Shown: positions 37,285-63,426 of the stretch, in pieces
How positions within the stretch are numbered: the stretch's first letter is position 1
Layout: each line of letters starts with the position of its first letter
NCBI GenBank assembly: GCA_951406725.2
Contig: OX597824.1
Location: 88,226,001-88,290,000, forward strand
DNA length: 64,000 nt
Source: Octopus vulgaris
Lineage: Eukaryota
Direction of reading: 5' to 3'
Program-made: the position numbers and the translations under genes
Notes under the pieces: model-generated
The model's database searches: none
What the model saw: the letters and a program-made list of their open reading frames with translations, nothing else
Told to the model about the DNA's origin: nothing

Positions 37285-37573
37285 GGATCTTTTGAACGGC
37301 AGTTTTCAACACAGTATCTAGTTAACTAAACACTTTTAAACTTCGTATACTGGTAGAATATGTCAAAATAAAACATTTTTTTCTCTTGGCTTTCTTGAGA
37401 AAATTGTAATTTTTATGTCTAACGTAGTTTAATTTTTCGAATTTTAACCAATCCTATGCCCTCTATTGAGCTAAAATCATTTATTTTGACACATTCTACC
37501 AGTATACGAAGTTTAAAAGTGTTTAGTTAACTAGAAATTGTGTTGAAAACTGCCGTTCAAAAGGAAAAGATCC
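37285..37573. mobile_element. Merlin-like MITE (same family as 20356-20772)
   Basis: GGATC...GATCC termini, long inverted arms, 8-bp TSD ACCTGGG(T/A). Confidence 0.8.
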
Positions 37574-37693
37574 ACCTGGGATCTCATTCCTAAGGTATTT
37601 TTCGACATACATATATGTGCGCTCGCTCGCTCGCGCACACACATTTGGATATACTAGTTTAACTAAAACAAGTTAACACAAATTGGGCTTAGA

Positions 37694-37724
37694 TGACGCA
37701 TATTGTATTCCATAGTTTTCCCGC
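37694..37724 (+). promoter_or_regulatory. Putative promoter elements of the MTLN-like/ASRGL1 transcript
   Basis: TGACG half-CRE at 37694 and E2F-like TTTCCCGC at 37717-37724, just upstream of the ORF. Confidence 0.3.
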
Positions 37725-37749
37725 TAGTCAAGCATGATTGAGTTTTAAA

Positions 37750-37989
37750 ATGCTCGTCAAAATGCACGCCACGGGCAGGGAAATTGTTGTAGCGGCTTCA
37801 GTTGCATTTGTCTTGGGTGTTGTAGTCGGATACAAATTAAAAACTTTACGTGTAAGCTATCTGAAGAGAGTGAAAAGCTTTTATGCTAAAAAGGCTGCTA
37901 AAATACAGAAGAAAATCGAAGAAGAAACTGGTTCGACCTGTTTTGACGACCCTTCGACTCATTCAAAAGCAGCACAGATTCCCGTCTAG
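37750..37989 (+). CDS. MTLN: Mitoregulin (MTLN/MOXI/MPM)-like single-pass microprotein, 75-79 aa (ATG at 37750 or 37762)
   Basis: MHATGREIVVAASVAFVLGVVVGYKLKTLRVSYLKRVKSFYAKKAAKIQKKIEEE aligns without gaps to human mitoregulin as recalled (17/53 identities: VAF..GV..G.....LR..YL...K.....K.A..QKK); hydrophobic helix followed by a basic coiled segment; unique non-repeat sequence. Confidence 0.8.
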   Translation: MLVKMHATGREIVVAASVAFVLGVVVGYKLKTLRVSYLKRVKSFYAKKAAKIQKKIEEETGSTCFDDPSTHSKAAQIPV

Positions 37990-38396
37990 TTTAAAATATA
38001 TCTAAAATATAAAAGAAAAACTGTCCGTTTTTACAAATAATCATATATATTTAGAAATCTATTTTTATTCAATATCATCAAGTATTCAGGTAAGTAAATA
38101 TATTTGTTATTTCTTTATTTAAGAAAGGACGGAAAGGTCACGTTGGCACCAAGTCGAGAAGGCCTCTCTGGTCGCAAGTTTTCGGGTCCTAATCATTTCG
38201 GGCTTTTTTTTGTGTGTTTTACCTTATATCATTTTGCATCCCCAGCCTTTTACATGAAACAGGTTGAAAGGGGTTTACTACTTGAGAACAGTGGTCCCGG
38301 TGCGCGCACTCGCGTTGTCTAAACTTTACCGGTGCTCTACTCAACATTTAAACATACTAATCGAATTATACGTATTTGTCCAAATTATTTATTATT

Positions 38397-38436
<40 letters not shown>

Positions 38437-38439
38437 ATA

Positions 38440-38530
38440 GGAAAAGGTAAAGAATATGCACACCCGGTGTTTAAGTTTAGGGTTAGGGTTACACTGAAAA
38501 TGGGCGGTGTGCATATTCTTTATCTCTGCC
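38440..38530. mobile_element. Very short MITE
   Basis: Inverted ends TAAAGAATATGCACACC / GGTGTGCATATTCTTTA around TTAGGGTTAGGGTTA. Confidence 0.6.
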
Positions 38531-39145
38531 ATGTATGTATGTGTGTGTGTGTAAATTAAGTACCAGTTACGCACTGGGGTCGATGTAATCAACTTAATCC
38601 CTTTGTCTGTCCTTGTTTGTCCGTTCTATGTTTAGCCCCTTGTGGGTAGTAAAGAAATAAGAATCATTAGCACACTGGCTGAAATGCTTTGCGGTATTTC
38701 ATCTATCTTTACGTTTTGAGTTCAAATTCTAGCAAGGTCAACTTTGCCTTTCATCCTTTTGTAGGGGTCAATAAATTAAGTACCAGTTACATACTGGGGT
38801 CAATCTAATTGACTGCCATCCTCCCCCACAAAATTTTGAACCTTGTGTCTAGAGTAGAAAAGAATACCACCATATATATGATTAAAGCGTGTTCGGAGGA
38901 GTTTTTTGAAGTCTTTGTTTCAGTGCTCCTTAAATTTTTCACCAATATTTGGGGCTTTTTATCTATGTAAGATTGTGTGCAATTTGCACACAATCTTGCA
39001 CCGTGGCCCTTTCATACACTTTAGTATATATGATTCTTTACTTATATACACACACATATATACATATTGTTTTTAAAGCACACATGTTTAAATATTTTAA
39101 TAAAGAAACTGGCAAAATAGAAAACAAGAAGAGACCGGCTGAAAT

Positions 39146-39341
39146 ATGAATGATATAAAGCCCATTATAGCCATCCATGGTGGAGCTTGGGCTATACCTG
39201 ATGATATGTCTGAAAGAAGTATAGAAGGAGTAAAACTTGCTGCTAATTTGGGATTTATGAAACTAAAGCAAAATGGAAGTGCAATAGATGCTGTTGTGAC
39301 TGCTGTGACAAGTCTTGAGAATGATCCGGTCTTTGATGCTG
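39146..39341 (+). CDS. ASRGL1: ASRGL1 coding exon 1
   Basis: [15 protein letters not shown]...DPVFDAG; donor GTATGT. Confidence 0.95.
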
Positions 39342-42300
39342 GTATGTAACTTTTTAAAACCCATTTCTCCATAAACACGTCGGTCTCTGTTTAAATTTGT
39401 TACTATCAGAAATATTTTTGTTGATAAGTTTTTTTTGTAGTTAAGAATTTGTTGAAACAAAATGCACCATTTATGGATAGATATGTACTTTATTTCTGTA
39501 TTTCTCATAGACACTATAAACTCCATTTATATTGCATTCATCTGCACTGCCGTTAGTCTGTTTTAGCCACAGGTTGTCTTAATCTATTTAACCCTTTAGT
39601 AATTTATACCGACCATATCCGGCCCAAATATTCTACTTGTTCTATGTTCAAACTGGCAGGATCTGGCTTTGCACACTTATCCTACAATGTCATTCTAAGA
39701 ATAAGCAATCACATCCTCAAAATTTCTATACTATGATGTCTTTGCATGATTAACTCAAAGCAATATGAATAAATAAGCATTACATTTCACAGAATAATCT
39801 GAATACTAAAGGGTTAAACAATAGTTGATGGGTAAAAATACATTCTCAATTTAAACTTCTTGCTCATTAGCAGTATTTCCTATGAATTGGTAAAATTTGA
39901 CATCAATTTTATCACCACAGATGTACACCAACAGTTTCTTACGAATTTACAATTCACTCCTGGTACCAAAAAGCTTTGCCATCCTTGAATTAAAGTATCA
40001 AGCAAATTAATTTTGATAGTTTAATCTCTCTATATATAAAGCTGAAGTTTTGTCTGTGTATGGCAGGTTTGGTAGCCTTCAACTAACACTATCTCCTCCG
40101 AGACCCTGCAGCGCAAGTTGACCAAAATTAAAAGTATGATAGAAGAAGGCTTGCTCTTCATTCTGTAGAAGATAAAATTCAAATAAGACCATGTTAGCAC
40201 CAAAAATTATTTACATCAAAAAGGTGCTTTTTTTCTATGAAAATCCCTATTTTCTACGATTTTTTTACTGCTGTGTCGCCATTTTTCGGTGTATTTCAAA
40301 CCAGAAAAATGTTCGCTTAAAAAGAATAACAAGCTACATAATGCAAAATTTTTACTTTTCAAAAATTCCAATTCTAAAGGGTCGAAACAAACCCAAGCAA
40401 CACCGGGCGATACTGCTTGTGATAAAATATTTTTCATAAAGACATGAGTCAGAGAACATTTAACATTCACTGTTGATTACAATATTTCATAGTCTGCATT
40501 ATCAAATTCTCTAAATTAACTGACTACAGTTAGTGTTATATACTCATGTGTGTTGTAGAAGATTGAGCTATTTTCTCATATTTACACGTTCTTTTACTAA
40601 CTTTCATTCATTAGGCACCGGATCTGTGCTTAACAGCATTGGTGAAGTTGAAATGGATGCTATGATTATGGAAGGTTCTGCACTAAACAGTGGTGCCGTT
40701 GCTTGTGTGCAGAACATTGCTAACCCTATACAACTAGCTCAAATTGTTATGGAAAGGGTAATATTCTTTTAAATATTAGACTAATCTGCAATGTTTTAGT
40801 TTGTACATTCAATTCCCTCTACAAGCATTGGGTTGTCTTAGAAAAACATTTAAACCTGTTTTTTGAGTTCTATAAAAATTCTAAATATATTGGTTTTACT
40901 GACATAGACACAAGGCTACAAATTTTTAGAAATGAATATGATTGATTTTGTTAACTGCAATGTTTGACAGAGACTTTACTTTTTCAACTCTGAAAGGATT
41001 TGAGCTTAAAATATATATAAAAAAAAACCAGTAGCGTAATGAAATGTTGGTTTCAAATTTTAGCACAAAGCCATCAATTTCAGGGGAGGGTTTGAGTCGA
41101 TTACATCAACCCTAGTTTTTAACTGGTACCTATTTTATGAAGTACTAGCACTATGACCCAGCAATGCTGGGTCATAGTGCTAGTGCATGCATATGCAGCT
41201 GCGTGTGTGCGCACATACACATGAGTACTGTCCAAATCTCTGACCAATCACATACAGCTAGCTGGCATTCAATTGGTGTATCAAGTTTCGGGCATTTTGA
41301 TTGGGTTTTGGATAGAAAATCCACAAAAAAGTCCCTTCTATTGATTTTTGAATGGCTTTGCAGGGTGACTGTGGAAATGTAAAGATGTGCACGACCACCC
41401 TTGGACGGTTTTGAATGACCATAGAAAGTGCGAGCCCTCTAACGGAAAAATTGTGGATTTGTATAAAGGACACACACACACACATACAAACAGACATTTT
41501 GCTGTTTATATATATAGAGATGAAAGGCAAAGTCAACCTTGGCAGAATTTGAACTCAGAATGTAAAGATGGATGAAATGCTGCTTAGTGTTTTGCTTGGT
41601 GCGCTAACGATTCTGCCAACTTGCTGCCTTGGTATAAGGAAATTTTGGTTTTCAAATTTTGGCACAACGCCAGCAATTTTGGGGGAGGGCATAAATTGAT
41701 TACATCAACACCCCCAGTGCTCAACTGGTACTTATTTTATTCTTTTCTACTCTAGGCACAAGGCCCAAAATTTTGGGGGGAAGATGTGGGGGGGGGACAG
41801 TCAATTAGATCGATTCCTCCAGTATGCAACTGGTACTTATTTTATTGACCCAGAAAGGATGAAAGACTAAGTGAACCTCAGCTGAATTTGAACTCAAGAC
41901 ATAAAGGTGGACGAAATGTTGCTAAGCATTTTGCCTGGTGTGCTAACGATTCTGCCAACATGCCACCTTAGAAGGCATTATATTTGATGCCCCTCAGATT
42001 CTTCCAGTTCATTTACTATGTCATGTCCACAGACAAGAAGTAGTAACTTTTAAAAATATTCTATTATTCTTCTGCTCCTTACATTATTTTCCCCATATCT
42101 AAACTTGGGAGGCCTGTGTTTAGTAGCTTTTTCCTATGTCATGCTCACAGACAAAAAGTAGTATTATGGAGATGTACTTGCATAGCAAGCGACCTGATCT
42201 GAGATCATGTGCTGAAACAAAAACAATTGCTGTGTGGAAGGGGTTTATAAGCCATTTAAAAACACACAAAAACCGTTAGATTCACTTCAACATATAAATT

Positions 42301-43448
42301 TAATTTGCCAAAATATTTTCGTTGCTTTGGGACCACAACCATGGAATTTTGTCAGTGAACAGGTCGCAGTCTCAAAGTGACAGAAATATCTTGACAAATT
42401 AAATTTAAATGAATCTAACGGTTTTTGTGTGTTTTTAAATGGCTTATAAACACCTTCCACACTGCAAAAAGTAGTCCCTTTTTTAAAAATTCTATTCTTC
42501 TGCTCCTTACATTATTTCCTTGTTCTCACATACTCTTACAGTTGGTTTCTCCTATCTTTGACCATCCCCTTTTCTTGTCATATTCAATATTAATCTGTTC
42601 AGTTTTGTTACTTCTTCCTCCTCCTCCCTCTTCACTTTGTCATGCATCTCTCACTACATCTCATCCACGTTTGTTTTTTAGCAACAATAATTTATTGTTA
42701 ATTACTGGTTCTAATGTAATATCTTGTTTTCCTTCGTAATTTCACAGACAGATCATGTGTTGTTAGTGGGTAAAGGAGCTAATGCTTTTGCTGAAGAGCA
42801 TGGTGTATCTACTGTCCCAACTGAGGTTTTAGTTACAGAAAGTGCTAAAAAGGAATGGCAAACCTATATGGAATTTAAGAGCACTATTAAAAATCTATTT
42901 CAATCATCAAAACAAGTGTAAGTTGGTTTTTAAGTTATCATATTTATTCACATTTAATATGCACTTTCCTCCAGATTCTTAAACCTAACATTTGTATTAT
43001 GTATTCATCATCATCATCATTTAACGTCTGTTTTCCATGACATGATTCCCATCACTATTACACAAATAGTGATAGGAACAAATAGACATGAAACACATAG
43101 GTCCAACTTCTCTGCTCTTTTTTTAAGTTTTTATTTTTTCCTGCACTGATGAGTACTTTGATATTTACAAATTCTGAAACTGAATTTATATCTATGTATG
43201 AAACGATCGTATGCATGAATAAACTTCTTACAGCTATTTAACATCTTATCTCCTCTATTTTTGACAAATATGATTAGATTTGTAGAACTTCATTCTATCA
43301 CTTAATCATATACTTAATATACTAATACAACTTTTCATATCTATGCCAAATTACACCAGTAAATTCTCAGCGAAATAATCAATGTCAGAAATATTTTTGG
43401 AAACCATTCCAGTTGAAGGACGAATCCACATTCTACCTTATACACACA

Positions 43449-43498
<50 letters not shown>

Positions 43499-46400
43499 CA
43501 AAGTGAGATAGGGGTTGTGAGTGTACTGTTTTATTCTGTATTATTATGTTTGATCTTGATGTTCCTATATAATTACTTTAATAAATTATATGAATTGGTA
43601 TTATCTAGTAGTTGATGATTGATTTAAATATATTCCTCCATTTTCTTGTGGCAAGTAAAAAGCACCATCCGATTGTGGCCGTTGCCAGCCTCGCCTGGCC
43701 CCTATGCAGGTGGCACATAAAAAGCACCATCCATCTGTGGCCGTTTGCCAGCTCCGTCTGGCACCTGTGCGGGTGGCACGTAAAAAGCACCCACTACACT
43801 CACGGAGTGGTTGGCGTGAGGAAGGGCATCCAGCCGTAGAAACACTGCCAGATCAGACTGGGCCTGATGCAGCCTTCTGGCTTCACAGACCCCAGTTGAA
43901 CCGTCCAACCCATGCTAGCATGGAAAGCGGACGCTAAACGATGATGATATATGATGATGATATATATATATACACAATATGAGGGAATATTATTCTAAAC
44001 TTACAGGGAAAAATTCAATTTAGAAATACTAAATCAAATTTCACAAAATATAATATATATATATAAATTAGAAACCACCTTTTATCAATTCAATAATGAA
44101 AAATTAAATTATACCATCTAGAAAATTACATATTATAGAAAGATTAAATATATATGTAATTTTCTAGATTGTATAATTTAATTTTTCATTATTGAATTGA
44201 TAAAAGGTGGGTTTTTTCCCAATTTATATATATATATATATATTGATAAAACGGTAAGATAACAAAAGAAAGAATCTAATATGGACGCATATCATATATA
44301 TATATATATATACGTGTTATTATATGCTTGTATTGTTCATCTTTATTTGCCTATTTAAACATAACCTTTTATTACATTAACTGATTAAATAAAAATAAAA
44401 GTGTGAAGGAAGAACTGATGAAATTGTTCAAGTCCTTCATATCTTTTGTATAGAAATATTACGTAGTATATGACTAGTTTTGATTTTGAGAAATTAATGA
44501 GAATTAATGATTTTTAGTATTCATGAGAATTGACATTGAATTTATGTTTAATTTACGTTTCTTAGTGAAGGCCATAATACTGTCGGTGCCGTTGCACTTG
44601 ATAAGTTTGGTAATCTCGCATGTGGTACATCCACTGGTGGAATCACGGCCAAAAGACTTGGAAGAGTAGGTGACAGTCCCATAATAGGTAAAGTCCCTTA
44701 ATTTCAATTTTTTTCTATTAATTTTAACATGAAGTTCTGTTAATATTTTTCTCTTTTTTTTTTTTTACTTGTTTCAGTTATTTTGACTGTGGCCATGCTG
44801 GAGCTCCGCCTTTAATCGAGCAACTCGACCCCGGGACTTATTCTTTGTAAGCCCAGTACTTATTCTATCGGTCTCTTTTGCCGAACCGCTAAGTGACAGG
44901 GACATAAACACACCAGCATCTACACATAAACACACAAGCAATGCTAGGGGGACAAACACAGACACACAAACATACACGCACATACATATATACGACGGGC
45001 TTCTTTCAGTTTCCGTCTACCAAGGCTATAGTAGAAGACACTTGCCCAAGGTGCAACACAGTGGGAGTGAACCCGGAACCATGTGGTTGGTAAACAAGCT
45101 ACTTACCACACAGCCATCCTAACATAAATTGGACGGGCCTGTTGTCAGTATGTAGTCTTGATCTTTCATCAGACCTCACTACTCCTTCGCATGTCTACCT
45201 TGTCCGCAAGTACCTTCCAGTGACAACACGCTACTTTTCTCAGCCCAGCCCACAATATTCATTCACATCCCATGCCCAGATGATCTCTCTGCCATGCAGT
45301 GGGATTGAACCTAGAACCACGTGGTTGGGAAGCAAGCTTTTTACCATACAGCCACACCTACACTTGATGTTTGGCAAAAAATACATAGCTTCATCGTTAT
45401 AAAGGAAATGGGCTGTGGGTTGATTGAGAACAGATGGAGCAGTTGTAGGCCTTTGAAAATTTAGGATGATGTAGATGATGTAGATTAATGCTTGTAGTTT
45501 TGGTTTCTGATGTTAAAATTGCATTAGACTGAGGTTTAGGTGTTTCAGAGGTACGCCCCCACCTAAAAATCCCCTGTGTATTATACTCAAGGGCAGACTA
45601 TGCTCGAAGATTTACGGTATGCAATGATTTACAATTCTTGTCTCTGCTTTCTGTCCAAAAAGCAATCACATTTAACATTTATTTACCCAGGTTCTGGTGG
45701 ATATGCTGATAATAACATAGGTGCTGTTTCAACAACTGGTCATGGAGAAGCCATATCAAAAGTATGTCTTGCTAAACATATCATCCATCTTTTGGAACAA
45801 GGTAATTGAATAATCTCATAATACCAAATTCTTTGATAGTTATAAACCTTTTCCATGATAAGGGCCTTGTGTCTCTCTCTTTACTCTTTTACTTGTTTCA
45901 GTCATTTGACTGCGGCCATGCTGGAGCACCGCCTTTGGTCGAGCAACTCAACCCCAGGACTTATTCTTTGTAAGCCCAGTATTTATTCTATCGGTCTCTT
46001 CTGCTGAACCGCTAAGTGATGGAGACATAAACACACCAGCATCGGTTGTCAAGCAATGCTAGAGGGACAAACACAGACACACAAACATACATATATACGA
46101 TGGGCTTCTTTCAGTTTCCATCTACCAAATCCACTCACAAGGCTTTGGTCGGCCCAAGGCTATAGTAGAAGACACTTGCCCAAAGTGCCATGCAGTGGGA
46201 CTGAACCTGGAACCATGTGGTTGGTAAGCAAGCTACTTACCACACAGCCACTCCTGGGTAATAAAAATTATAATACTTTTAACTGGTGGAGGAAACTCTG
46301 CAAAAGTTTCCTTGTTTGTCATATATTTATATTTAGATATTTTTGCAGAATATTCCTCCAATTAGCATTCAAATAGGGATCAATAATTTTAGCATTTTTA

Positions 46401-47237
46401 GTACACCGGACGAAATGCTTAGCGGTATTTCGTCTGTCGCTATGTTCTGAGGTCGACTTTGCCTTTCATCCTTTCGGGGTCGATTAAATAAGTACCAGTT
46501 ACACACTGGGATCGATATAATCGACTTAATCTGTCTGTCTGTCCTCTCTGTGTTTAGCCTTTTGTGGATAGTAAAGAAATAGGTATTTCGTCTGCCTCTA
46601 TGTTCTGAGTTCAAATTCCGCCGAGGTCGACTTTGCCTTTCATCCGTTCAGGGTCGATTAAATAAGTACCAATTATGCACTGGGGTCGATATAATCCATC
46701 TGTCTGTCCTTGTTTGTCCTCTCTGTGTTTAGCCCCTTGTGGGTAGTAAAGAAATAGGTATTTCGTCTGTCGTTATGTTCTGAGTTCAAATTCCGCCGAG
46801 GTCGACTTTGCCTTTCATCCTTTCGGGGTCGATAAATAAAGTACCAGTTTCACACTGGGGCCGATGGAATCGATTTAATCCCTTTGCCTGCCCCCTCTAT
46901 GTTTAGCCCCTTGTGGGTAGTAAAGAAATGTATATGTGGCTATGATATGTCCACACTTACAGTTTGCGTTTCTAGCCTGGAACCATATCTTGTAAATTGA
47001 TATAATTCTTTATCATTTTTCTTTTTAGGATTTGATCCGGATGCAGCAGCTAAAGAAGCCATTAATTTTATGTTGAACAGAGTCAATGGTTGTGGTGGAG
47101 CTATAGTTTTAAATAAAATGGGACAAGCTGCTGTCAATTTTAGTACTGAGCGAATGGCTTGGGCCTGGCAAAATGAACTTGCTCTACATTTTGGATTGAA
47201 TCCAACAGAACACTTCACGGAAGTTTCGATTGTTTGA
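39146..47237 (+). CDS. ASRGL1: Isoaspartyl peptidase/L-asparaginase (Ntn hydrolase), 316 aa; join 39146-39341, 40615-40757, 42748-42917, 44566-44687, 45691-45801, 47029-47237
   Basis: Six GT-AG exons total 951 nt in frame: [24 protein letters not shown]...[10 protein letters not shown]...[37 protein letters not shown]...[29 protein letters not shown]...[15 protein letters not shown]...MAWA; ends in TGA. Confidence 0.96.
39592..39813. mobile_element. piggyBac-type MITE
   Basis: TTAA TSD, CCCTTTAG TIRs, inverted copy of 12548-12767. Confidence 0.75.
40025..40419 (+). mobile_element. Non-autonomous Helitron (same family as 1969-2314)
   Basis: TCTCTCTATATATAAAGCTG start; 3' hairpin plus CTTG|T end; colinear with the minus-strand copy at 1969-2314. 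Confidence 0.75.
40615..40757 (+). CDS. ASRGL1: ASRGL1 coding exon 2
   Basis: [21 protein letters not shown]...IVMER; TTAG and GTAATA boundaries. Confidence 0.95.
41145..41520 (-). mobile_element. Non-autonomous Helitron-like element inserted into a SINE
   Basis: TC(TC)TATATATAAA 5' end; 3' end is a long hairpin ending in CTAG. Confidence 0.65.
42227..42467. repeat. Long inverted repeat (about 110-bp arms)
   Basis: GTGTGGAAGG...TTTATAAGCCATTTAAAAACACACAAAAACCGTTAGATTCA versus its reverse complement at about 42410-42467. Confidence 0.85.
42748..42917 (+). CDS. ASRGL1: ASRGL1 coding exon 3
   Basis: [19 protein letters not shown]...; ACAG and GTAAGT boundaries. Confidence 0.93.
43142..43215 (+). 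ncRNA. Type I hammerhead ribozyme motif (Penelope/retrozyme-like minimal stem III) in ASRGL1 intron 3
   Basis: Stem I TGCA/TGCA; core CTGATGA at 43146-43152; stem II GTAC/GTAT; GAAAC at 43200-43204; palindromic loop GATC; GTA cleavage triplet at 43209-43211; AATAAA just downstream. Confidence 0.65.
44054..44235. repeat. AT-rich inverted repeat (about 75-bp arms)
   Basis: CCACCTTTTATCAATTCAATAATGAAAAATTAAATTATAC...TCTAGAAAATTACATAT versus its reverse complement. Confidence 0.85.
44566..44687 (+). CDS. ASRGL1: ASRGL1 coding exon 4 (catalytic Thr)
   Basis: [41 protein letters not shown]; TTAG and GTAAAG boundaries. Confidence 0.96.
45691..45801 (+). CDS. ASRGL1: ASRGL1 coding exon 5
   Basis: [28 protein letters not shown]; CCAG and GTAATT boundaries. 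Confidence 0.95.
47029..47237 (+). CDS. ASRGL1: ASRGL1 coding exon 6 (terminal)
   Basis: [27 protein letters not shown]...ERMAWAW...HFG...TGA; polypyrimidine acceptor. Confidence 0.93.
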
Positions 47238-47409
47238 AAACCCTTGAATATTTTGTAACAAATATTTCGCAGTATACATATTTTATCAACATCTACATTT
47301 CGTCCTAGAGTTGTCAGCTAATTCACAAGGGACATGTTTCATGTGCTAAGATAATCTTTTTATAAATTCAAACAAACTACATATATTACCTAAAAAAAAA
47401 AAAAAATGA

Positions 47410-56400: not shown

Positions 56401-57065
56401 CATTTTATAATAGCACCAAAAAGAAATTTAGCCTCACATAGTATGATGAACCAATAAAATAGTTACTCTCTTTTTACTTGTTCCAGTCATTTGACTGCGG
56501 CCATGCTGGAGCACCGCCTTTAGTCGAGCAAATCGACCCCGGGACTTATTCTTTGTAAACCCAGTACCTATTCTATCGGTCTCTATTGCCGAACCGCTAA
56601 GTTACGAGGACGTAAACACACCGGCATCGGTTGTCAAGCAATGCTAGGTGGACAAACAGAGACACACAAACACATACCTATATCGACAGGCTTCTTTCAG
56701 TTTCCGTCTACCAAATCCACTCACAAGGCATTGGTCGGCCCGGGGTTATAGCAGAAGACACTTGCCTAAGGTGCCACACAGTGGGACTGAACCTGGAACC
56801 ATGTGGCTGGTTAGCAAGCTACTTACCACACAGCCACTCCTGCACCTTGCAGGAGTATTTTTGAAGAGTATTTTTGCAATTTAAGAAGGAAAATAAATTC
56901 AGAAAAATCCTTACCAAATTTATGGATCTTGACGTACATAGGGGATGCTATGATGATAGCATATGTCAAATATCTCAAAAATCTAGCATTAGCCCAATGG
57001 TACTTCCATGGGAAGCGCAACAGCTTGGCACTCATGGTATATGGGTACCTCATTTGTTCTGCCAT
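50415..57065 (-). CDS. 77-aa single-pass microprotein resembling Drosophila roh (CG30415); join 57065-56915, 51801-51748, 50443-50415
   Basis: Three GT-AG exons (151+54+29 nt) give MAEQMRYPYTMSAKLLRFPWKYHWANARFLRYLTYAIIIASPMYVKIHKFANQPGNWAKWSTIRAKREHTHFDPVKP*. The YPYTxxAKxxxFP...ANxPxNxxKW pattern is recalled from a conserved invertebrate small-protein family. AATAAA on the minus strand at 50341-50336. Confidence 0.85.
51748..51801 (-). CDS. roh-like microprotein, coding exon 2 (ANQPGNWAKWSTIRAKRE)
   Basis: TTTTTAACAG acceptor, GTAAGT donor, phase 1/1. Confidence 0.85.
51901..52120. mobile_element. piggyBac-type MITE, family 2 (copies also at 32420-32641, about 35120-35338, 53918-54138, and 15860-16538 interrupted)
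   Basis: TTAA|CCCTTTCGTTAC ... GTAACGAAAGGG|TTAA; shared internal sequence of about 220 bp. Confidence 0.85.
52405..52640 (-). mobile_element. RTE-clade LINE 3' fragment
   Basis: LASNRQAWSAFVRDA C-terminal motif; TTGA-type tail. Confidence 0.7.
55673..55957 (-). mobile_element. 5'-truncated RTE-clade LINE
   Basis: YGKLPPVSSLVKGRRVQFAGHC...LLLWKP...AMMDREVW; (GAT)n tail; duplicated CTATGTGGCA flanks. Confidence 0.85.
56915..57065 (-). CDS. roh-like microprotein, coding exon 1
   Basis: Acceptor TTTTCTTTTCAG ending at 57074; AAAATGG start context; donor GTAAGG. Confidence 0.88.
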
Positions 57066-60169: not shown

Positions 60170-60438
60170 GACCCGTTAGCTTCATGCTGACCTTCGTTTC
60201 CCACCAGATGCCCTCCGCAACAGAGAGTGACACTCGATTTATAAGGGGGGGATAACCGCCGAGAGAAGCTCTTTTTTACCGGGAGGCAGTAGTTCTGGTG
60301 GAAGTGTAACTCTCCCCAGTAAAGGTGTCAGCAGACCGGCGCCATTTTCCATCCCGAACTTGTGCTGTGTCACGTTGTTGTTTGTGTCTGACAACTTTGC
60401 TGGGTATTTTAAAGTTTCCGTTGTCAAAAAAGAGAACC
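60170..60438. promoter_or_regulatory. Putative bidirectional promoter between PSMD1 (+) and the roh-like gene (-)
   Basis: GC/CpG-richer island; minus-strand donor AAG|GTCAGC at 60191 for a non-coding first exon; ETS-like GGAAGTG at 60300; YY1-like CGCCATTTT at 60340-60348; ARE GTGACACAGCA (minus strand) at 60363-60373. Confidence 0.6.
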
Positions 60439-63426
60439 ATGAAGATGAAAACTCATATGACTTCGGCTTCAGGAGTTATATCTCTGCTGGACGAACCGGA
60501 CGAACAACTGAAGGTATTCGCCTTGGAAAAGCTAAACAAGATCGTTGATGTATTTTGGGCTGAGATTGCAGAAGCGGTCGTGAAAATCGAGGTATTGTAC
60601 GAAAGTCATGATTTCCGTTGCCGTGATCTGGCTGCTTTGGTTGCTTCTAAAGTTTATTATCATCTCGGGGCTTATGAAGATTCACTTAAGTATGCATTGG
60701 GAGCTCTCAATTTGTTTGATGTTACTGATACTTCTGAATATGTTTCCACAATCAAAGCAAAATGTATGGACCAATACACCAAAACGCAGGTTATTAACGC
60801 CGAAACACAAGAAGATGCCAAAATGATGGATACTCGACTCGAAGCGATAGTTAATCGAATGTTTCAGAGGTGTTTTGAGGATAAACAATATAAACAAGTT
60901 GTGGGTATTGCTTTGGAAACAAGAAGAATTGATATGTTTGAAAAAGCAATTTTGGAATCGGATGACCCTTCGGCAATGTTGGCATATAGTTTAAAAGTTT
61001 GTTTATCTCACATAATGAGTAGACATTTTAGAAATGATGTACTACGTGTTCTTACTGAGCTTTACATGCGTCTTAAGTCCCCAGATTATATCAGTGTGTG
61101 TCAGTGTTATATTTTCTTGGATGACCACCAATCTGTTGCAAATATCCTAGAGAAATTAATTAAGGGAAACGAAGAATCGCAACTGAAAGCCCTTCAAATT
61201 GCATTTGATTTGTATGAGAGTGCGACCCAACAATTTCTACAGGAAGTGCAAAACTGGCTTCGGCAGGTGGCCCCAGCACCATTACCGTCCATGAAAACGG
61301 AAGAAGAAAAACAAGTCGCTCCCACTGTAGAAAACAAGGAAGAGAAGATGGAAGTCGATGAGGAAAAAACCGCAGAAGCGGCTGCACCGGCACCTGCAAG
61401 TCCGTCGCTAACTGAGGACCAAAAAGATCTCCAGGAGAAAATTGTCAAACTTTATACAATTCTTGGAGGAGAAAACACTATAAAATTGCACTTGGATTTC
61501 CTTATTAGGAACAATAAAACTGATTCATTGATTCTGAAGAATACCAAAGATGCTGTTCGTAACTCCTTGTGCCACTCAGCCACTGTTATTGCCAATTCTT
61601 TCATGCATTGTGGCACTACATGCGATCAGTTTCTTCGTGACAATTTAGAATGGTTGGCTCGTGCCACTAACTGGGCTAAATTCACTGCTACTGCAAGTCT
61701 TGGTGTTATTCATAAAGGCCATGAAAAGGATGTCTTGAATTTCATGTCTACATATCTACCCAAAGACTCGAGTCCTGGATCTACCTACTCAGAAGGCGGG
61801 GGTCTTTATGCTCTTGGATTAATTCATGCTAACCATGGAGGTGAGATTACAAATTATTTACTTGGTCAACTCAAAGAGGCCACAAATGAAATGGTGAGAC
61901 ACGGAGGTTGTCTTGGCTTGGGTCTCGCAGCGATGGGTACTGCCCAGCAAGATATCTTTGAACAACTTCGAATAAACCTGTACCAAGATGATGCCGTGAC
62001 TGGTGAAGCAGCAGGACTTGCTATGGGGTTAGTAATGCTTGGAACTAAGAATGATGCTGCTATCCACGATATGCTTGTGTATGCACAGGATACCCAGCAC
62101 GAGAAGATTCTTCGTGGCTTGTCCGTTGGTATCGCTCTTACCATGTATGGTCGTATGGAAGAAGCTGATGAACTAGTCAAAACTTTGTCTCAAGATAAGG
62201 ACCCCATTCTTCGTTGGTCTGGCATGTACACCCTTGCTATGGCCTACTGTGGTTCTGGTAACAACCAAGCTATCAGAAAATTGCTCCACATTGCCGTCAG
62301 TGATGTCAATGACGATGTGAGACGTGTCGCTGTCACTTCGCTTGGATTCCTTCTGTTCCGAACTCCTGAAAAATGTCCACAAGTTGTCTCTTTACTATCA
62401 GAAAGTTATAATCCTCATGTTAGATTTGGTGCTGCGATGGCTTTGGGCATTGCTTGTGCTGGAACCGGCCTAAAAGAAGCCCTAACCCTGTTGGAACCCA
62501 TGACTAACGATCCTGTTAACTACGTACGACAAGGAGCTCTCATCGCCTCAGCTTTAGTTCTCATTCAACAAAATGAAATCACTTGTCCTAAAGTCACACA
62601 CTTCCGTCAATTATATACTAAAGTAATTACTGACAAACATGATGATGTTATGGCAAAGTTTGGCGCTATCTTAGCCCAAGGAATACTAGATGCTGGTGGT
62701 CGAAATGTTACTATTTCTCTTCAGTCTCGCACAGGTCATACCAATATGGAAGCTGTCGTAGGAATGTTGGTGTTTTGTCAGTACTGGTTTTGGTACCCCC
62801 TTACTCACTTTTTATCCTTGGCATTTAAGCCTACTTGTATAATCGGACTGAACAGCAATTTACTAATGCCAAAAGTACAGTTTCGTTCCAACGCAAAACC
62901 TTCCACGTTTGCATACCCACCTCATTTAGAAGAAAAAAAAGACAAAACTAAAGAAAAGGTTAAAACTGCTGTCCTCAGTATTACGGCGAAACAAAAGAAA
63001 AAGGAAGCCGAAAAGAAAGAGAAAGAAGAGAAGATGGATGTGGATGAAGAAGCTTCGGATGAACCAGAAAAGAAGACTGCTAAAACAGAGAAAAAGGAAG
63101 AGAAAAAAGAAGTGGTTAAAGATAAGAAAGAGGAAGGAAAAGAAGAGAAGAAAGAGGAGGAGAAAGAAAAGAAGCCAGAGGCAAACTTTGAGTTATTAGA
63201 CAACCCGGCTCGGGTTATGCGGGCCCAGCTCCGAATGATCACCATGCCAGATGCCTCGAGATACACGTCGGTGAAGGATGTAACGAGCGGAGGACTCATT
63301 ATGTTACACAATCGCAAACCAGACGATCTTGAAGACCTCGTAGAACCTATCGCTGCAGGCGGTCCAAAAGTCGAAGAGGAATCAGAACCAGAACCTCCTG
63401 AGCCGTTTGAATGGACTGAAGATTAA
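60439..63426 (+). CDS. PSMD1: 26S proteasome non-ATPase regulatory subunit 1 (Rpn2), 995 aa, intronless
   Basis: Uninterrupted ORF from the first ATG (60439): [55 protein letters not shown] repeats ([39 protein letters not shown]), C-terminal [10 protein letters not shown]. Confidence 0.98.

Follow-up and report, generated by a model that had tools for sequence, protein, structure and literature searches.

The mitoregulin family (MTLN; Pfam PF22002) is known from vertebrates, where the 56-aa protein is encoded by an ORF of a stand-alone transcript formerly regarded as a lncRNA (LINC00116). In vertebrates the protein resides in a mitochondrial membrane and has been linked to cardiolipin and to fatty-acid enzymes, the details being disputed (PMC11920140, PMC11732159). 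Another paper describes an outer-membrane topology with the C-terminus directed to the cytosol (PMC10469944), and Trp25 of the human protein has been studied for its role in self-association (PMC11732159). A 2025 review states that invertebrates are believed to lack mitoregulin (PMC11920140).

Small mitochondrial membrane proteins encoded as the first ORF of a bicistronic mRNA are represented by Drosophila sloth1-sloth2. The two sloth ORFs are paralogues acting together, separated by 5 nt, the first of which has a weak start; leaky scanning has been proposed for this mRNA, and in jawed vertebrates each orthologue has a gene of its own (PMC9681215). Among 298 conserved small ORFs of Drosophila, 32 are located on polycistronic transcripts, a layout that is rarely kept (10.1101/2022.04.24.489283); the main text of that study mentions neither mitoregulin nor LINC00116, SMIM37 or MOXI.

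The window analyzed here is a 64,000-nt stretch of the Octopus vulgaris genome (GenBank assembly GCA_951406725.2, contig OX597824.1, positions 88,226,001 to 88,290,000, forward strand). Judged by its sequence, the ORF at 37750-37989 is almost certainly a genuine octopus mitoregulin. We consider it probable that this ORF, the single mitoregulin gene of the octopus, lies in the first exon of ASRGL1 (isoaspartyl peptidase/L-asparaginase) and serves as the first of two ORFs that a single spliced mRNA carries for translation. The features of the locus, in window coordinates, are as follows:

37289..37563, no strand assigned: inverted repeat immediately preceding exon 1, its two 91-nt arms being 95% complementary
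37533..38089, + strand: exon 1 of the putative shared transcript, with the MTLN ORF and 100 nt of spacer; contig starts vary between 37533 and 37563, at the repeat edge
ATG at 37615, 37693 and 37734, + strand: three short upstream ORFs in exon 1
37750..37989, + strand: MTLN ORF, encoding 79 aa if started at M1 and 75 aa if started at M5 (37762)
37783..37839, + strand: the one predicted transmembrane segment, spanning residues 12-30 (19 residues with a mean hydropathy of 2.26)
37834..37923, + strand: basic helix formed by residues 29-58 (net charge of +9), which includes the conserved K31, R34, Y37 and L38
37927..37986, + strand: C-terminal tail, residues 60-79, unconserved and predicted to be disordered
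38090..39105, + strand: intron 1 (GT..AG, 1016 nt), separating the exon with MTLN from the first coding exon of ASRGL1
39106..39341, + strand: exon 2, with 40 nt of spacer followed by the ASRGL1 start codon at 39146
40615..40757, + strand: ASRGL1 exon 3
42748..42917, + strand: ASRGL1 exon 4
44566..44687, + strand: ASRGL1 exon 5
45691..45801, + strand: ASRGL1 exon 6
47029..47381, + strand: last ASRGL1 exon (stop codon 47235-47237) and 3' UTR

A preliminary description of this DNA had recognized motifs of human mitoregulin followed by about 20 additional residues, and all of these elements can be located in the 79-aa ORF: VAFxxGVxxG at residues 18-27, LRxxYL at 33-38, QKK at 53-55, and the tail at residues 60-79. 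The preliminary description also gave an identity of 17/53 to the human protein. A profile search, which had been proposed as a check, bore out the assignment: PF22002 matches the ORF with 30 bits (cut-off 27, E-value 4.7e-7), with residues 10-57 aligned without gaps to positions 7-54 of the 56-position profile, and no second Pfam family was found for this ORF at E-values up to 10. The octopus ORF thus shares with vertebrate mitoregulin both the ungapped match and the layout, i.e. a hydrophobic helix in the N-terminal part and a basic segment behind it. A PF22002 scan of the 2.8-Gb genome, in which 150 of 450 candidates were scored, returned four matches, among which the MTLN ORF was the best (29.9 bits, with the next at 22.6) and the only one above the cut-off; the protein is single-copy in this genome, as it is in vertebrates.

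A further profile was built from 23 more remote relatives, leaving out the query and its three closest relatives. Against it the ORF scored 73.8 bits, a value that is not fully independent since the octopus protein had been the starting point for finding these 23 rows. None of 2000 plain shuffles of the protein reached this score against the same profile (the best 9.4 bits), nor did any of 2000 shuffles in which the membrane-helix/basic-tail layout was preserved (the best 17.6), and the next-best ORF of the window scored 6.7 bits. In the Atlas the Mitoregulin cluster ranked sixth for this ORF with a score of 0.78, which we treat as a lead only, and the exact sequence is absent among 15 billion proteins.

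Analysis of sequence variation reveals that the mitoregulin ORF is conserved and under purifying selection in its relatives. Four differences within the octopus ORF are listed among four sequencing runs (at 37791, 37815, 37938 and 37980), and all four are synonymous third positions; with 80 of the 234 possible transitions being synonymous, the chance of such an outcome is ~0.014. For ten relatives from another clade (ten distinct metagenome loci, the remaining four of 14 having been left out as duplicates or partial), the median dN/dS was 0.12 over the 44 usable of 45 pairs, while the control values, calculated for five of the six frames, exceeded 1 in four of them and amounted to 0.23 in the antisense frame that shares third positions. 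The predominance of synonymous changes is another feature common to the octopus ORF and vertebrate mitoregulin.

When 1.84 billion representatives were searched with the octopus protein alone, 11 matches emerged, ten of them short and the eleventh a long repeat protein (P0005, 1424 aa, with RTX-type repeats), which was rejected as a chance match and dropped before alignment. Among 11 short relatives (the ten short matches and P0002), ten passed the PF22002 cut-off, the close relative P0003 falling below it with 23 bits; a subsequent profile search gave 23 matches among 698 candidates, all of them with PF22002. The named PF22002-positive relatives come from the scorpion Androctonus bicolor (AIX87760.1) and the tick Amblyomma americanum (XP_077520611.1), with further tick members in Rhipicephalus (KAH8028557.1, KAL1485317.1); the scorpion and tick records are titled cellular, uncharacterized or hypothetical protein, and the remaining matches are unnamed. 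Five residues, F20, G23, G27, R34 and L38, are invariant in all 27 aligned rows, which makes them direct targets for mutations addressing the mitochondrial function of mitoregulin. In a tree calculated without named vertebrate rows, the octopus protein clusters with P0002-P0004 with 100/100 support. These three closest relatives, probably proteins of other cephalopods, match it at 32-34 of the 48 residues of the core, and two exceed the Pfam cut-off with 35 and 44 bits; their N-terminal starts coincide in the alignment with M5.

The presence of PF22002 members in the octopus, in a scorpion and three ticks, and in vertebrates covers both branches of protostomes as well as deuterostomes. A bilaterian origin of the family can therefore be soundly inferred from these sequences, in agreement with the earlier suggestion that it predates the protostome-deuterostome split, and the conserved, apparently transcribed octopus copy together with its tick and scorpion relatives would push the origin of mitoregulin back to early bilaterians. 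A literature search, largely limited to non-subscription journals and judged mostly by titles and abstracts, retrieved neither an invertebrate mitoregulin, molluscs and arthropods included, nor an MTLN-ASRGL1 transcript or a bicistronic ASRGL1; the main text of PMC13670568 does not mention mitoregulin, and PMC8290114 turned out to be a false lead, as it concerns mtlncRNA. The range of the family is thus unrecognized in print, yet Pfam-matching invertebrate records are already public. The lack of annotation in the octopus had been attributed to the small size of the ORF, which is probably only a part of the explanation, as the ORF also sits in the 5' leader exon of ASRGL1.

The C-terminal tail, which accounts for the excess of the octopus protein (79 or 75 aa) over the 56 aa of the vertebrate one, had been singled out as a distinguishing feature, but it proved unremarkable: 13 of the 27 aligned members extend at least ten residues beyond the core with no common tail sequence, and across 26 relatives identity to the query amounts to 0-5 of 20 residues in the tail vs 15-34 of 48 in the core, which rules the tail out as a special feature. 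The predicted structure comprises a single helix spanning residues 9-62 (mean pLDDT 70.6), with low confidence over the tail, where pLDDT drops below 50 at residues 64-67 and 69-73, and the two variants listed within the tail are both silent. The tail is most likely a free extension. Such tails may be tolerated because the outer-membrane model places the C-terminus of the vertebrate protein on the cytosolic side (PMC10469944). The membrane segment of the octopus protein ends with Tyr28, in a column occupied by Tyr in 25 of 27 rows and by Trp in one; by the profile offset, this residue would correspond approximately to human Trp25.

Downstream of the MTLN ORF, on the same strand, we found six exons encoding PF01112, which GT-AG introns join into an intact 316-aa ASRGL1. 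This protein possesses the full-length PF01112 domain, its closest relatives are named accordingly, and its best matches among solved structures are isoaspartyl peptidase/L-asparaginase chains; it is 97% identical over 312 residues to an Octopus bimaculoides record (95% in the first coding exon). It resembles known ASRGL1 proteins in being intact at 316 aa and differs from them by the conserved protein-coding ORF in its leader exon. The two ORFs, of 79 and 316 aa, are both intact and non-overlapping, and are separated by a 140-nt AT-rich spacer (23% GC), in which there is no ATG, nor is there any AATAAA or ATTAAA from the MTLN stop to the splice donor. Other PF01112 genes in this genome include an intronless one at C4:107196013-107196909 and an apparently tandem-duplicated multi-exon pair at C5:51.19-51.22 Mb.

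The transcript evidence suggests that MTLN and ASRGL1 are likely carried by one bicistronic mRNA. The spliced join between exons 1 and 2 was found in six runs from six studies with two organism labels, among seven distinct runs; the intron 1 acceptor (39086-39105) has no pyrimidine tract, yet it is used in all six spliced runs. Contigs of four studies (X1, X5, X6 and X10) run from the MTLN exon directly into 39104, and three of them continue through further exons, the one from X5 reaching the last exon among the matches listed, where a gap of 231 nt is taken to represent exons 5-6. In X1, X14 and X17 a single unbranched contig covering the MTLN ORF leaves the genome sequence at 38089 and continues with the sequence of exon 2. 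The spliced model of ~1680 nt agrees with the lengths of three contig records (1686, 1690 and 1691 nt), in which the exons are joined at full length. The large run X15 crosses the exon 1/intron boundary in one unspliced piece. All these runs are assembled contigs rather than long reads, in which starts, ends and single molecules are invisible; their RNA nature is a guess backed by GT-AG splicing, as no record is labeled RNA. The missing depth at 38097-38192 in three runs was not taken as evidence alone. The 5' end of the transcript is not fixed, because the inverted repeat at 37289-37563, likely a small mobile element, hides the true start. A weak X1 contig (depth 3.5, with 11 differences and 14 gaps) covers 38780-39106 within intron 1 and could mark another 5' end.

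As to the route by which the second protein would be made, leaky scanning is the most likely. Most ribosomes would initiate at M1 or M5 and produce mitoregulin, while a minority would scan past both starts through the almost AUG-free 365 nt between M5 and the start of ASRGL1. This segment contains one ATG, whereas 5000 dinucleotide shuffles averaged 5.4 (P 0.009, for a region that was picked after being seen), and 2 of 175 tiles of the window are equally ATG-poor; for the spacer by itself the scarcity is not significant (P 0.145). Scarcity of AUG before the ASRGL1 ORF fits leaky scanning, and AUG under-representation before the second ORF is reported in a study of algal bicistrons with leaky scanning (PMC11892635). 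Two observations weigh against this reading. Both MTLN starts have A at position -3, which, together with the three upstream ORFs, would leave few ribosomes for ASRGL1. The MTLN stop is located 100 nt before the exon junction, and stops farther upstream of a junction than 50-55 nt invite nonsense-mediated decay, so the transcript would be at risk of decay. The good start contexts, the upstream ATGs and the decay risk keep two alternative explanations alive.

The first of these, which we regard as unlikely, accepts that the mitoregulin is real and postulates separate overlapping mRNAs, one ending shortly past the MTLN stop and the other starting inside exon 1 and encoding only ASRGL1, with the assembler chaining both. 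The blindness of contigs to starts and ends would allow this, the AT-rich spacer could contain a weak poly(A) signal, and an mRNA of ASRGL1 alone would avoid the hindrance posed by the favourable contexts of both MTLN starts and by the three ATGs upstream of them; the canonical poly(A) signal is nevertheless missing in the 100 nt before the donor, the contigs that enter exon 2 from the MTLN ORF in X1, X14 and X17 are unbranched, and ATG depletion over the MTLN ORF itself suggests that ribosomes cross it. The second alternative, considerably less probable still, retains one mRNA and departs from leaky scanning only in the route to the second ORF: ASRGL1 would be translated by re-initiation after the MTLN stop, and the MTLN ORF would also act as a regulatory upstream ORF linking the output of asparaginase to the state of translation. 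The strong -3 context of both MTLN starts and the ATG-free 140-nt spacer are compatible with such a scheme, whereas the ATG depletion within the MTLN ORF is predicted by scanning and is unneeded for re-initiation, which is usually inefficient after an ORF of 75-79 codons. The third alternative, a chance or decayed upstream ORF whose helix and basic tail merely mimic mitoregulin, is largely refuted and hardly credible, given that a PF22002 score just 3 bits above the cut-off, an Atlas score of 0.78 and the 19 of 1000 exon 1 shuffles that yield an ATG ORF this long are outweighed by layout-preserving shuffles peaking at 17.6 vs 73.8 bits, by the core residues common with the three closest relatives (two of which pass Pfam), and by the synonymous nature of every listed variant.

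Returning to one spliced mRNA with leaky scanning, the fate of its first product can be sketched by analogy with vertebrate work. Localization in the mitochondrial membrane and a role there may be carried over to octopus MTLN: the hydrophobic helix would insert in the mitochondrial outer membrane, with the basic helix and the disordered tail facing the cytosol, and the protein would contribute to membrane integrity and to the handling of lipids. Its pairing with ASRGL1 would likely represent lineage-specific promoter sharing rather than a functional partnership. Compared with vertebrate mitoregulin, encoded by a stand-alone transcript, the octopus copy would be the first ORF of the ASRGL1 transcript. 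The likeness to sloth1-sloth2 lies in the small mitochondrial membrane protein encoded first; the octopus locus differs in that its second ORF is an unrelated 316-aa enzyme located 140 nt away across an intron, and in that its first ORF has A at -3. If confirmed, octopus MTLN-ASRGL1 would be a cephalopod addition to the few bicistronic genes listed for animals, and owing to the likely shared mRNA, knockdown of either MTLN or ASRGL1 in the octopus would affect both. ASRGL1 as the partner of mitoregulin is new here, although the surprise is tempered by the Pfam-matching invertebrate proteins already in public databases.

The conservation of this partnership was examined in the 14 metagenome loci that contain mitoregulin, where tblastn detected ASRGL1 nearby in none (0/14); 13 of these loci belong to one distant clade, only two include ~10 kb of downstream sequence, and none is from a close relative. 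One of them, L008 (213-1781, + strand), contains a mitoregulin ORF (67.7 bits) followed, 27 nt past the stop, by an intronless 453-aa ORF with CCCH zinc finger and RING domains, which from its layout we take to be makorin-like; no CCCH/RING ORF follows mitoregulin in the other 13 loci. A change of partners is plausible and requires no functional link to asparaginase; the rarely conserved layout of polycistronic small ORFs in Drosophila (10.1101/2022.04.24.489283) seems to apply to the partner of mitoregulin as well. We tentatively propose, as a reading that is somewhat more doubtful than not, that mitoregulin is an ancient bilaterian microprotein, which in many invertebrates is a hitchhiking first ORF whose partner changed repeatedly (asparaginase in the octopus, and possibly a makorin-like RING protein in the clade of L008). 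If true, this would explain the vertebrate-only view of the family and predict more hidden conserved microproteins in 5' leaders of invertebrates. In eight loci (L002, L004, L005, L007 and L009-L012) a short common sequence is present ~5-30 nt past the MTLN stop, possibly a 3' RNA element.

Elsewhere in the window, RPN2 (PSMD1), a subunit of the 26S proteasome, is encoded at 60361-63426 (+ strand) by a single intronless ORF of ~1020 aa. A small ORF at 56823-57065 (- strand), which matches no Pfam family and resembles a small Drosophila protein, shows similarity in its first 51 residues to unnamed arthropod and oomycete clusters of the Atlas (scores 0.89-0.90, leads only), and may be an exon of another unannotated mitochondrial microprotein.
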